This document shows, in pieces, positions 34,552-61,600 of a DNA stretch of 64,000 nt. Numbering within the stretch: the stretch's first letter is position 1; each line of letters starts with the position of its first letter. The DNA comes from a phage: the sequence record PZ445439.1. One strand, 5' to 3'. Both the position numbers and the translations under genes were made by a program. Under the pieces are notes generated by a model. The model was not told the DNA's origin. It did no database searches and worked only from the letters and a program-made list of their open reading frames with translations.

Positions 34552-34733
34552 ACGGAATTTACATAATCAATAAGTTCTTGCTCTTTATTATCGAATTCTT
34601 TAGAAAGTTCTTCGTATTCATTTGCGCTAAAAGGACCGCATTCATCACAAACTTTTTCTAATTCACTATTTTTATCCATAACTTCGTGAATAAGAGAAAA
34701 CAGCCTGTCTTTCTGTTCTTTACTTAGGCTCAT
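34548..34733 (-). CDS. Hypothetical acidic protein
   Basis: 61 aa; resembles the neighbouring 62 aa ORF. Confidence 0.45.
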   Translation of the reverse strand: MSLSKEQKDRLFSLIHEVMDKNSELEKVCDECGPFSANEYEELSKEFDNKEQELIDYVNSV

Positions 34734-34902
34734 AATATATCGATTCCCAAAAGTTTTAAAATGACTCGCTTTTGATTCATAACTGCAACAATTGAATGAC
34801 CATTTGGGTCTTTTTGACCTGATCCAATTATAAATCCTTTTTGAGCAGAAAGTTCAATTAAAATGTCGAGTTCACGTAATAATTGATATTTCAAATCATC
34901 AT

Positions 34903-35130
34903 TCATTTCGGTTTTCCTTCTTTAACGAAATCTGGATAAGGATAAAATCCTGAATAAAATCCTTCACCTTTATGATTCGTGCACCCTTTATTAGAACAAT
35001 AGCACCAATAATCAAAATCACAAGCCATTTCATCATTACATAAAGCAAAGACAACTGGCCATTTACACTTTTCACAATGGGCATTTTTGAGAATGCTAGT
35101 TTGGCTCATAACCATGTAACCTTTAAGCAA
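34903..35130 (-). CDS. Cys-rich small protein (putative zinc binding)
   Basis: HCEKCK...CNDEMACDFDYWCYCSNKGC. Confidence 0.5.
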   Translation of the reverse strand: MLKGYMVMSQTSILKNAHCEKCKWPVVFALCNDEMACDFDYWCYCSNKGCTNHKGEGFYSGFYPYPDFVKEGKPK

Positions 35131-35318
35131 TATTCTTCTACGTGTTGTTTACGACCTTTCTTATCAATAAAAGTATATTCAACATATTCACCAATATACC
35201 ACTTGTCTACATTATGTGGGCTTTTTATAGGACACTTGGTTACCCGAGTTTCTATCCAACTCCGGATAATTGAAGCTTTGTTTTTAGGGTCAAACGGATG
35301 CGGGTAATGTGCTTTCAT
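35106..35318 (-). CDS. Hypothetical protein
   Basis: 70 aa ORF. Confidence 0.45.
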   Translation of the reverse strand: MKAHYPHPFDPKNKASIIRSWIETRVTKCPIKSPHNVDKWYIGEYVEYTFIDKKGRKQHVEEYCLKVTWL

Positions 35319-35769
35319 AATCCACCACTATTAAATCAATATCAGGAGTAAACATGTCGATTAATTTAGAAACCTTATCCCAATCACCGCCAGCAATACC
35401 ACAACCTATACGTGGAATATAAATTACTGGTTTAAACAAAAGGGTTTCTGCCTGTAGATTTAATTCTATCATACAGTTTACTAAAGCACCATAATCAAGA
35501 TTAGGACCTGGTTCGTATTGCGTATACAGGTTGTAACATATGCCAAAACCATTAGGTTTATGTTTAAAAACTATAGACATATCACCGAGTTTTTCACGCG
35601 AACCATATTCAGTTGTGGTCTTATCTATTTCTAAAATTTTGGGATAGGCTCTTGCTAATTGACCCGCTACACCTGAACCCATTGTGTGGAAGCAATTGCA
35701 CCCGTGCGCAATAATATTACCTTCAAGAAAGAGGGCGACAATATCGCCCTTGATATATTTTACAATCAT
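35290..35769 (-). CDS. Macro-domain (ADP-ribose binding or processing) protein
   Basis: IKGDIV, AHGCNC, MGSGVAGQLA and IGCGIAGGDW blocks fit the macro fold. Confidence 0.65.
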   Translation of the reverse strand: MIVKYIKGDIVALFLEGNIIAHGCNCFHTMGSGVAGQLARAYPKILEIDKTTTEYGSREKLGDMSIVFKHKPNGFGICYNLYTQYEPGPNLDYGALVNCMIELNLQAETLLFKPVIYIPRIGCGIAGGDWDKVSKLIDMFTPDIDLIVVDYESTLPASV

Positions 35770-36113
35770 CTAGTACTCAATCCTCGATTATAAGAATCTA
35801 CTAAACGGTCAACCATTGAACGACAAGCGGCTTTGTCTTTTTCCTCCGCAACTGAGCATTCTAAGGTATTCCACTTTTTAGCATATCGTTTTAATAATGT
35901 ATCGTTTTTGTATCTACTTGTTTTATCTCTTTCTCCGTCTTTATATGCATATATTAATTTCTGCGCAAACTCAGATTGACATGCTTTATTTTTCCCGCAA
36001 TAATCTGCCGCAGTGCGGTTCACATACTCCCTAATTTCAGTATATGATGTATCTGCTGACGCGTAAGCAGAAAATGAAATTAATCCTATACATAAAACCA
36101 AAATTTTAGTCAT
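35766..36113 (-). CDS. Secreted Cys-containing protein (possibly vs by position)
   Basis: 115 aa with signal peptide MTKILVLCIGLISFSAYA. Confidence 0.5.
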   Translation of the reverse strand: MTKILVLCIGLISFSAYASADTSYTEIREYVNRTAADYCGKNKACQSEFAQKLIYAYKDGERDKTSRYKNDTLLKRYAKKWNTLECSVAEEKDKAACRSMVDRLVDSYNRGLSTR

Positions 36114-37146: not shown

Positions 37147-37177
37147 AATTATACCACAGTTAAGAGGAAAAGTAAAC
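37147..37177 (-). promoter_or_regulatory. Early promoter (-35 GTTTAC, -10 TGGTATAAT)
   Basis: Upstream of regB. Confidence 0.55.
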
Positions 37178-37760: not shown

Positions 37761-37938
37761 CTAAACGAATAGGTTCATGAATGCCATATCCTTGAACAGA
37801 AATTTCTGTCGTAGGATAAATTCCATCAATATCACCCATATTCCACGCTTCATTAAATTGCTGTTCGCCTGAATTACTAAACCATTCGGCGAAAGCATTT
37901 AGTACATCTTTAGAACCTTCAATAATTATCTTTGCCAT
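37717..37938 (-). CDS. Hypothetical protein
   Basis: 73 aa ORF. Confidence 0.45.
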   Translation of the reverse strand: MAKIIIEGSKDVLNAFAEWFSNSGEQQFNEAWNMGDIDGIYPTTEISVQGYGIHEPIRLVEYDLCTGEEVKYD

Positions 37939-38300
37939 TACAAACTCTCGGTAAAGGTACGAGCGATAACGTCGCGTTGCTGTTCCGGAGTCAGAGAGTT
38001 AAAGCGAACTGCATAACCGGATACACGGATGGTCAGCTGCGGATATTTTTCCGGATGCTTAACTGCATCTTCCAGAGTTTCACGACGCAGAACGTTAACG
38101 TTCAGGTGTTGACCACCTTCAATTTTAACTGTAGGCTGTGGCTCAATTTCAATTTCACGGGCATGCAAACCATAGAAAATTTCTGGGTCTACAAAAGAGT
38201 CCTCTTTAAAGGTTTTAGAAACGATAATTCGTGCTTGAATACCATCTTCAAAATAAATAGTACCTTTGTGCGTGCCTTCAAGAATTTGATATGCTTTCAT
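37938..38300 (-). CDS. Autonomous glycyl-radical cofactor-like protein (GrcA/YfiD-like)
   Basis: C-terminal RVSGYAVRF glycyl radical motif. Confidence 0.7.
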
Positions 38301-58612: not shown

Positions 58613-61600
58613 CAGTAAAAGCACCTTCAGTCACTAGTCTCAGAATTTCCAAGTTATCCGCAAATCAGGTGCAAGTACGCTGGGATGACGTTGGTGCTAA
58701 TTTCTACTATTTTGTAGAAATCGCTGAGACAAAAACAAACTCGGGGGAAAATCTCCCGAGTAATCAATACAGATGGATTAACTTAGGATATACTGCAAAT
58801 AACAGCTTCTTTTTTGATGATGCTGATCCATTGACATCATACATTATCAGAGTAGCTACAGCTGCGCAAGATTTTGAGCAGTCTGATTGGATTTATACCG
58901 AAGAGTTTGAAACTTTTGCTACAAATGCTTATACATTTCAAAACATGATTGAAATGCAATTAGCCAATAAATTCATTCAGGAAAAATTTACTCTTAATAA
59001 TTCTGATTATGTTAATTTTAATAATGACACTATAATGGCTGCATTGATGAATGAATCATTTCAATTCAGCCCATCGTATGTTGATGTTTCATCAATAAGT
59101 AATTTTATTATTGGTGAAAATGAGTATCATGAAATACAAGGTTCTATTCAGCAAGTATGTAAGGATATTAACCGAGTTTATTTGATGGAATCAGAAGGAA
59201 TTCTATATCTTTTTGAGCGCTATCAACCTGTAGTTAAAGTATCCAATGATAAAGGACAAACTTGGAAAGCTGTAAAGCTCTTCAATGACCGTGTAGGATA
59301 TCCTTTATCTAAGACAGTATATTACCAATCTGCGAACACAACATACGTTCTAGGATACGACAAGATTTTCTATGGCCGCAAATCTACTGATGTTAGATGG
59401 TCAGCCGATGATGTCAGATTTAGTTCTCAGGATATAACATTTGCTAAACTTGGCGACCAGTTACATTTAGGATTTGATGTAGAAATTTTTGCCACTTACG
59501 CGACTTTGCCAGCGAATGTATACCGCATTGCAGAAGCTATTACTTGCACCGATGATTACATTTACGTTGTCGCCAGAGACAAAGTTAGATACATAAAAAC
59601 GAGTAATGCACCTATAGATTCTGATCCATTATCTCCAACATATTCGGAAAGACTTTTTGAACCTGATACCATGACTATAACCGGAAATCCTAAAGCAGTA
59701 TGTTATAAAATGGATTCTATCGGTGATAAAGTTTTTGCTCTTATTATTGGTGAAGTTGAAACATTAAATGCTAATCCTAGAACATCAAAAATAATTGATT
59801 CCGCTGATAAAGGAATATATGTTTTAAATCATGACGAAAAAACATGGAAAAGAGTTTTTGGTAATACCGAAGAAGAAAGAAGACGTATTCAACCCGGATA
59901 TGCGAATATGTCAACTGACGGTAAATTAGTTTCTCTGTCTTCGAGTAATTTTAAATTTTTAAGTGATAACGTTGTTAATGACCCTGAAACTGCGGCAAAA
60001 TACCAGTTAATTGGCGCTGTTAAATATGAATTTCCTCGCGAATGGTTAGCTGATAAACATTATCATATGATGGCGTTTATAGCGGATGAAAAATCTGACT
60101 GGGAGACTTTTACTCCTCAACCAATGAAATACTACGCAGAACCATTCTTTAACTGGTCTAAAAAATCTAACACGCGTTGTTGGATAAACAACTCCGATAG
60201 AGCTGTAGTAGTTTATGCGGATTTAAAATACACTAAAGTTATAGAAAATATTCCTGAAACATCACCAGATAGATTAGTGCATGAATACTGGGATGATGGC
60301 GATTGCACTATAGTAATGCCAAATGTTAAATTCACTGGATTTAAAAAATATGCATCTGGGATGCTTTTCTATAAAGCCTCTGGTGAAATAATTTCTTATT
60401 ATGATTTTAACTATCGTGTGAGAGATACAGTAGAAATTATTTGGAAGCCAACCGGGGTATTTTTAAAAGCGTTTTTACAAAACCAAGAGCATGAAACTCC
60501 TTGGTCACCGGAAGAAGAGCATGGATTAGCTGACCCTGATTTAAGACCATTAATTGGCACAATGATGCCTGATTCTTATTTGTTACAGGATTCGAATTTT
60601 GAGGCATTTTGCGAAGCATATATTCAATATCTTTCTGATGGATACGGAACTCAGTATAATAATTTGCGAAATTTAATTCGTAATCAGTATCCACGAGAAG
60701 AGCATGCATGGGAATATTTGTGGTCAGAGATATATAAAAGAAACATTTATTTAAATGCTGACAAACGCGATGCTGTCGCAAGATTCTTTGAATCACGTAG
60801 CTATGATTTTTATTCTACTAAAGGAATTGAAGCATCATACAAATTTCTTTTTAAAGTTCTTTATAATGAAGAAGTTGAAATTGAAATTGAATCTGGGGCT
60901 GGTACTGAATATGACATAATCGTTCAATCTGATTCTTTGACTGAAGATTTAGTAGGACAAACGATTTATACGGCAACAGGAAGATGTAATGTTACTTATA
61001 TAGAAAGAAGCTATTCTAATGGTAAATTGCAATGGACCGTGACTATACATAATCTTTTGGGGCGTTTAATAGCAGGGCAAGAAGTTAAAGCAGAAAGACT
61101 CCCTAGTTTTGAAGGCGAAATTATTCGTGGGGTTAAAGGAAAGGATTTGCTTCAAAATAATATAGACTATATTAATAGAAGTCGATCATATTATGTAATG
61201 AAAATTAAATCCAATTTACCTTCTTCTCGTTGGAAATCTGACGTTATTCGTTTTGTTCATCCAGTAGGATTTGGATTTATAGCAATTACTCTTTTAACTA
61301 TGTTTATTAATGTTGGTTTAACTCTTAAACATACAGAGACTATAATTAATAAATACAAAAACTATAAATGGGATTCTGGATTGCCTACTGAATATGCTGA
61401 TAGAATAGCTAAATTAACTCCAACTGGTGAAATTGAGCATGATTCAGTAACAGGCGAAGCAATTTATGAGCCTGGCCCAATGGCTGGTGTAGAATATCCT
61501 CTTCCTGATGACTATAATGCTGAAAATAACAATTCAATATTTCAAGGTCAATTGCCGTCTGAACGACGTAAATTAATGAGTCCTCTATTTGACGCATCTG

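Follow-up and report, generated by a model that had tools for sequence, protein, structure and literature searches.

A diverged allele of the macrodomain gene tk.4 (adfM) in a T4-like phage and its likely relation to DarTG2 counter-defense

RESULTS

The macro ORF is the ortholog of T4 tk.4

The window (the whole stretch analyzed, 64,000 nucleotides from phage sequence record PZ445439.1) is Tequatrovirus (T4-like) phage DNA. Several deposited genomes match it at about 95% identity, and none is fully identical. Between its tk and regB orthologs lies an ORF for a small macrodomain protein, referred to here as the macro ORF (Table 1). The gene order in T4 (NC_000866) is tk, tk.1, tk.2, tk.3, tk.4, vs, vs.1, regB, and tk.4 (155 aa, 60922..61389) fills the slot between tk.3 and vs. 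The macro ORF occupies the same slot. The TGA stop codon of vs overlaps its ATG (ATGA), and the vs/tk.4 junction of T4 is identical. The predicted product is 58% identical to T4 Tk.4 over 155 aa (E = 4e-62). Because the slot, the ATGA overlap, and the full-length match all agree, the macro ORF is the syntenic ortholog of T4 tk.4 (adfM) and is neither an extra nor a new gene. The initial annotation had suggested that it may be an extra gene of this interval, an idea that does not hold since T4 tk.4 sits in the same place. At the other end, the start of tk.3 overlaps the macro ORF by 29 nt, compared with 4 nt in T4, because the macro ORF product runs 4 residues longer at its C terminus than T4 Tk.4. 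The 29-nt overlap (window 35290..35318) is also found in JoYop, PSD2001, and C6.

Table 1. Features of the tk-regB region and its surroundings in the window
Feature	Coordinates	Strand	Description
Extra ORF	34730..34906	-	58 aa; PHROG 3452, E = 6.3e-28
Insertion	34736..35104		369 nt, between tk.2 and tk.3
Extra ORF, zinc binding	34903..35130	-	75 aa, Cys-rich "phage zinc binding domain"; PF23895, PHROG 2306
Diverged tk.4+tk.3 cassette	35097..35816	.	720 nt; from sliding-window identity, blastn, and per-gene table
tk.3 ortholog	35106..35318	-	70 aa; DUF7202, PF23832 (Pfam and PHROG matches); 79% identical to T4 Tk.3
tk.4/adfM ortholog (macro ORF)	35290..35769	-	159 aa, ATG to TGA; single-domain macrodomain
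Hairpin AGGGCGAU-AUU-GUCGCCCU	35732..35750		macro ORF codons 7-13; perfect 8-bp stem, GC-rich
vs ortholog	35766..36113	-	valyl-tRNA synthetase modifier; directly upstream of macro ORF; 97% identical to T4 Vs
Candidate early promoter	37148..37176	-	sigma-70-like, upstream of regB; TTTACT-17-TATAAT with TG, 10/12 consensus match
vs.6 ortholog	37938..38300	-	120 aa; 99% identical to T4 vs.6

The tk-regB interval does hold more ORFs than its T4 counterpart. The excess is two (8 ORFs in the window versus 6 in T4), not one as counted initially, and both surplus ORFs lie in the insertion between tk.2 and tk.3. Neither they nor the insertion has a counterpart in the 9 kb of T4 compared (NC_000866 57000-66000). 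The PF23895 match of the Cys-rich ORF (E = 2.4e-29) begins at residue 8, and the true start is probably Met8 (34903..35109, 68 aa), which would join it to the tk.3 stop through an ATGA overlap; JoYop and ECML-123-2 annotate this ORF as a 207-nt coding sequence. Both extra ORFs occur alongside a 100% T4-type tk.4 in phage ECML-123-2, so the insertion does not depend on which tk.4 allele a phage has. Among close relatives, the tk to tk.4 interval is a hypervariable small-gene array. The JoYop interval has no tk.1 match and a tk.2-like ORF that is 56% identical, and Mosigvirus AV109 has one small ORF between tk and tk.4. Farther upstream, separated from regB by the three ORFs vs.3, vs.4, and vs.5, the ortholog of T4 vs.6 (RefSeq: autonomous glycyl radical cofactor GrcA) encodes a spare glycyl-radical domain already known in T4.

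Expression signals near tk.4

The tk.4 ortholog is probably expressed early, inside the codirectional and tightly packed regB-vs.1-vs-tk.4 run. The sigma-70-like site upstream of regB is a candidate promoter only, because the scan that found it was not enriched over shuffled sequences (19 sites found versus 23.5 expected). A GC-rich hairpin begins 19 nt past the first base of the macro ORF start codon. The equivalent site in OL631480 (L004 621..637) is annotated "rho-independent terminator." We rejected a functional terminator at the window site: the U-tract is weak, and the 101-nt hairpin context folds no better than shuffled sequences (z = -0.48). The hairpin may instead act in translation or in mRNA stability, or be a mere by-product of the KGDIVALF codons.

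The macro ORF encodes a bona fide macrodomain

All four macrodomain blocks reported by the initial annotation were found in the protein, IKGDIV at residues 6-11, AHGCNC at 21-26, MGSGVAGQLA at 30-39, and IGCGIAGGDW at 121-130, a combination far beyond chance. Signature residues include H22, N25, the MGSGVAG loop, N80-x-Y82-T83-Q84, and P119-R-I-G-C-G-I-A-G-G-D-W130. Pfam Macro (PF01661; gathering cutoff, 22 bits) matched with 34.4 bits and an E value of 2.4e-8 over profile positions 2-117, covering 116 of the 118 positions, and PHROG 335 matched with an E value of 2.2e-71. A tblastn search with the macro ORF found homologs in 2768 phage records at 2774 places, thus nearly always one per record. 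More widely, the Tk.4 family profile recovered 18,683 clusters at 50% identity among 1.84 billion representative proteins.

An AF2 model from the single sequence was unusable (pLDDT 37.7), and an alignment of 50 sequences was used instead. The resulting model has a macro fold with a pLDDT of 94 and a pTM of 0.89; residues 156-159 have low pLDDT. In Foldseek searches, it matched TARG1, BT1257, Poa1p, DarG, and SCO6735 at TM scores of 0.67 to 0.76 with a probability of 1.00. The model, which is ligand free, superposes on ADP-ribose-bound structures of TARG1, Poa1p, and DarG at TM 0.72 to 0.76, and the Gly-rich loops MGSGVAG and IGCGIAGG are kept across the Tk.4 family. The initial macrodomain call is thus borne out by the Pfam and PHROG matches and by the AF2 fold, and the macro ORF encodes a bona fide macrodomain.

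The tk.4 and tk.3 genes form a diverged cassette

In a sliding-window comparison, nucleotide identity to T4 is 98% where vs meets tk.4 and drops to 42 to 60% inside tk.4. By blastn, the cassette is 84% identical to Gaprivervirus PSD2001, with flanks at 67 to 70%. A comparison of window ORFs with those of T4, PSD2001, and the Dhakavirus C6 gave the per-gene amino acid identities in Table 2.

Table 2. Amino acid identity of window ORFs to three phages
Gene	T4 (Tequatrovirus)	PSD2001 (Gaprivervirus)	C6 (Dhakavirus)
regB	99%	59%	58%
vs.1	99%	66%	67%
vs	97%	45%	46%
tk.4	58%	93%	76%
tk.3	79%	89%	89%
tk.2	93%	54%	57%
tk.1	97%	40%	no match
tk	98%	71%	71%

Since the cassette is 84% identical to PSD2001 and its flanks only 67 to 70%, the data indicate that tk.4 and tk.3 were exchanged together between genera. 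At identities of at least 90%, the window-type tk.4 allele occurs in 318 deposited phage records and the T4-type allele in 224, with a further 159 records at 80 to 90% for the latter. The two alleles are about 50% identical at the nucleotide level, with synonymous sites saturated. The cassette is a recombination hotspot with alleles passing between genera, a pattern expected of an anti-defense gene under arms-race selection. It seems to us doubtful that the alleles differ in specificity and that intergenus cassette exchange maintains them as such variants. If they were, they might fit different DarT2 variants or differ in substrate (thymidine-ADPr DNA versus uracil-ADPr RNA or protein ADPr), and allele identity would help set host range on DarTG-carrying strains.

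The predicted active site resembles that of glutamine-type macrodomains

PDB searches with the family profile returned BT1257 (E = 1e-20), TARG1 (2e-17), SCO6735 (4e-16), Poa1p (8e-15), and DarG (4e-12), an order that places the macro ORF product in the ALC1/TARG1-like class. Structure search alone was rejected as a basis for the subclass, as TARG1, Poa1p, DarG, and SCO6735 all match at a TM of about 0.7. Against SCO6735, the family profile aligned in hhalign with 98.8% probability (E = 1.3e-16).

In HMMER, MAFFT, and hhalign alignments alike, N25 pairs with DarG N22 and SCO6735 N27, H22 with SCO6735 H24, G122 and G124 with SCO6735 G126 and G128, and A126 with TARG1 D125. Q84 corresponds to K80 of DarG (T. 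aquaticus and M. tuberculosis), K84 of TARG1, K78 of phiKZ gp104, and Q85 of SCO6735. An hhalign placement of Q84 one column away from phiKZ K78 fell in a low-confidence stretch and was overruled by MAFFT and by the DarG, SCO6735, and TARG1 alignments. All 259 Tk.4 family sequences sampled have Q84; N25 is kept in 257 of them and H22 in 253. Sixteen residues are invariant across 50 family members, and all 16 are present in both the window and T4 alleles.

Gln in place of the catalytic Lys, together with Ala for TARG1 Asp125, could be read as the mark of a noncatalytic ADP-ribose binder that shields or sequesters ADP-ribosylated DNA or directly inhibits DarT2. Reader macrodomains without enzyme activity exist (PMC9503650), and AdfA and AdfB are direct DarT inhibitors (PMC13309987). 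We nevertheless regard this reading as highly improbable. SCO6735, which surpasses DarG on T-ADPr DNA, cannot do without this Gln for catalysis (PMC9411070), and the near-invariance of H22, N25, and Q84 (n = 259) fits an active site. SCO6735 cleaves thymidine-linked ADPr-DNA more efficiently than DarG does and protects cells against DarT toxicity, and its Q85A mutant has no activity (PMC9411070). The missing catalytic Lys was accordingly dropped as an argument against DarG-like function, the Gln-type SCO6735 being an efficient T-ADPr DNA hydrolase that the Q85A change inactivates.

DarG profiles were the best or sole matches of the macro ORF in NCBIfam and PADLOC. The NCBIfam DarG match reached 28.1 bits (cutoff, 250) and covered only positions 2-142 of 338; with the PADLOC DarG model, the macro ORF scored 28 bits, T4 Tk.4 36, and phiKZ gp104 133. 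With Gln at the key position, the protein would be expected to work most like SCO6735. It is not a DarG, because it lacks K80, a DarT-binding domain, and an adjacent darT, and scores 28 bits on DarG profiles.

Resemblance to Poa1p and the small-molecule alternative

Residues 3-79 of the macro ORF product match yeast Poa1p with an E value of 2e-9, and the two proteins have almost the same HxCNC...G-G-GxA loop. By motif, H22 corresponds to Poa1p H23, T29 to S30, and A126 to F152 (Poa1p residues known from PDB mutant titles); H23 is the residue mutated in PDB 6lfs. RefSeq has long labeled T4 tk.4 "phosphatase; contains A1pp phosphatase motif," PHROG 335 carries a "phosphatase" label as well, and a comparative-genomics survey made the case that soluble ADPr derivatives are the main targets of Macro domains in phages (PMC9503650). 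The protein might then be a small-molecule hydrolase acting on ADP-ribose-1''-phosphate, O-acetyl-ADP-ribose, or ADPr-derived immune signals, with a role in metabolite clean-up or signal quenching and none in DNA repair. Several observations make this improbable. The family profile favors SCO6735, BT1257, and TARG1 (E values of 1e-20 to 4e-16) over Poa1p (8e-15). Poa1p F152 corresponds by motif to Ala, and S30 to a variable position (Thr in 142 of 259 sequences). The name "phosphatase" was carried over from other annotations and does not come from an assay, and the sole known phenotype of the T4 ortholog is DarTG2 sensitivity. A role against Thoeris or ADP-ribose-derived signals, raised in the initial annotation, found no evidence in this analysis.

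Genetics of the T4 ortholog point to an anti-DarTG2 function

Transposon sequencing of T4 grown with DarTG2-expressing bacteria singled out tk.4 (adfM) as the sole significant gene, and a clean T4 tk.4 knockout was DarTG2 sensitive (bioRxiv 10.1101/2025.11.20.689424). The gene was named adfM, for anti-DarT factor Macrodomain; removal of ADP-ribose from DNA was proposed there without biochemistry and described as what "seems likely" (bioRxiv 10.1101/2025.11.20.689424). Earlier work found that DarTG2 resistance persists in T2 and T4 lacking adfN and in T4 lacking both adfA and adfN (PMC11825919). The adfM finding fills the gap left by these phages, which stay resistant without the other factors (PMC11825919). 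The idea in the initial annotation that a phage macrodomain could reverse DarT modification matches the genetics of the T4 ortholog, for which it is already published. That annotation would have been refuted by an identical T4 ortholog with a demonstrated unrelated role, which is not what we found: the T4 protein is only 58% identical, and the role shown for it is a related one. For the window allele, an anti-DarTG2 function is inferred by carrying it over from the T4 allele, which is 58% identical.

We think it likely that the macro ORF product is an orphan SCO6735-like DNA ADP-ribosylglycohydrolase that erases DarT2 marks on thymidine. The free-standing macrodomain would bind the ADP-ribose that host DarT2 places on thymidine N3 in TNTC motifs of single-stranded phage DNA. 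Hydrolysis of the N-glycosidic bond would release ADP-ribose and restore replicable DNA, and the phage would thus escape DarTG2 abortive defense. The chemistry would be of the SCO6735 type rather than the DarG/TARG1 type, given Q84 at the position of DarG Lys80 and TARG1 Lys84. N25 and H22 would hold Q84, which would position the distal ribose for water-mediated cleavage.

Four sequence features count against the DNA hydrolase reading. The phosphate-binding loop is GCGIAGGDW, compared with GAGIGKGNW in the tested T4 allele. The SCO6735 loop with K89 and K94 is replaced by a short YEPGPN. Likeness to DarG profiles is weak, at 28 bits versus 133 for the biochemically validated phiKZ AdfM, and the N-terminal half is equally near Poa1p, an ADP-ribose-1''-phosphate phosphatase, and the DNA-ADPr hydrolases.

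SCO6735, the closest characterized Gln-type relative, has further substrates: it removes ADPr from protein Glu residues and uracil-ADPr from ssRNA (PMC9411070, PMC13036486). ADP-ribosylated RNA or protein might therefore be the main substrate, with anti-DarTG2 activity one facet or a side activity. The protein might erase uracil-ADPr from RNA, reverse the action of host ADP-ribosyltransferase toxins, or tune the phage's own Alt, ModA, and ModB marks. T-even phages encode three ADP-ribosyltransferases (PMC8120803), and the neighbors include RNA-related early genes, regB (endoribonuclease) and vs (tRNA synthetase modifier). Gene neighborhood is, however, a weak functional guide in T4 early regions. 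T4 does not need tk.4 on plain E. coli K-12, and the gene emerged specifically on DarTG2 (bioRxiv 10.1101/2025.11.20.689424). We give RNA or protein as the main substrate only a small chance of being correct. None of the three alternatives to a DNA ADP-ribosylglycohydrolase has a phenotype behind it in T-even phages.

DISCUSSION

The gene described here is the known T-even tk.4/adfM with its recent anti-DarTG2 role, and the window-type allele is already widely deposited. The value of the analysis is mostly in correcting and placing a known gene. For specialists, the placement of T4-type AdfM in the Gln branch and the intergenus allele exchange of tk.4 and tk.3 could be of modest use.

T4 Tk.4 (AdfM; NP_049723) is the nearest known system. 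It shares with the window protein its slot, the ATGA overlap with vs, a single-domain macro fold, and length class (155 versus 159 aa), and H22, N25, the NxYTQ motif, and all family-invariant residues are common to both. The two differ in the phosphate-binding loop, GAGIGKGNW in T4 and GCGIAGGDW in the window protein, and they are 58% identical although their neighborhoods are 93 to 99% identical.

SCO6735 (Streptomyces coelicolor, PDB 5E3B) and BT1257 (Bacteroides, PDB 2FG1/2AFC) are Gln-type ALC1-like macrodomains. Like the window protein, they carry Gln in the alignment column that holds the catalytic Lys of DarG and TARG1, together with the His, the Asn, and PRIGCG(I/L)AGG.W. They are the closest PDB sequences to the window protein, yet identity is about 25 to 27%. 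SCO6735 has a long mobile loop with Lys89 and Lys94 for DNA binding (PMC9411070), whereas the window protein has the shorter YEPGPN with no Lys, and SCO6735 Val25 is Gly23 in the window protein. SCO6735 (DNA-damage inducible) and BT1257 are, moreover, cellular proteins and not phage-encoded counter-defense.

The DarG2 macrodomain (T. aquaticus 5M31/5M3E, M. tuberculosis 5M3I) has the same fold as the window protein (TM 0.72 to 0.73). DarG2 and phiKZ gp104 share with it membership of the ALC1/TARG1-like class, an Asn at the place of DarG N22, and, presumably, DarT2-modified thymidine as a substrate. Catalytic Lys80 of DarG2 (phiKZ K78) contrasts with Gln84, and DarG2 has a C-terminal DarT-binding domain and an adjacent darT, whereas the window protein is 159 aa long with vs and tk.3 as its gene neighbors. 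With no darT beside it, the macro ORF is an orphan, as expected of a phage counter-defense gene.

phiKZ gp104, a DarG2-like macrodomain that strips ADP-ribose from DarT2-modified TNTC DNA, is also called AdfM (PMC13309987). Two groups thus use one name for phiKZ gp104 (L002 12518..13006) and T4 tk.4 (L001 3923..4390). These are likely independent recruitments, because the T4 type falls in the Gln (SCO6735/BT1257-like) branch and the phiKZ type in the Lys DarG branch, and the two probably differ in chemistry.

Human TARG1/OARD1 and yeast Poa1p are the top structural matches of the window protein (TM 0.73 to 0.76). The N-terminal HxCNC/GxG loop of Poa1p is very similar to that of the window protein, but the substrate of Poa1p is a soluble phosphate ester, and Poa1p has F152 where the window protein, by motif, has Ala126. 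In TARG1, the Lys84/Asp125 dyad corresponds to Gln84/Ala126 of the window protein.
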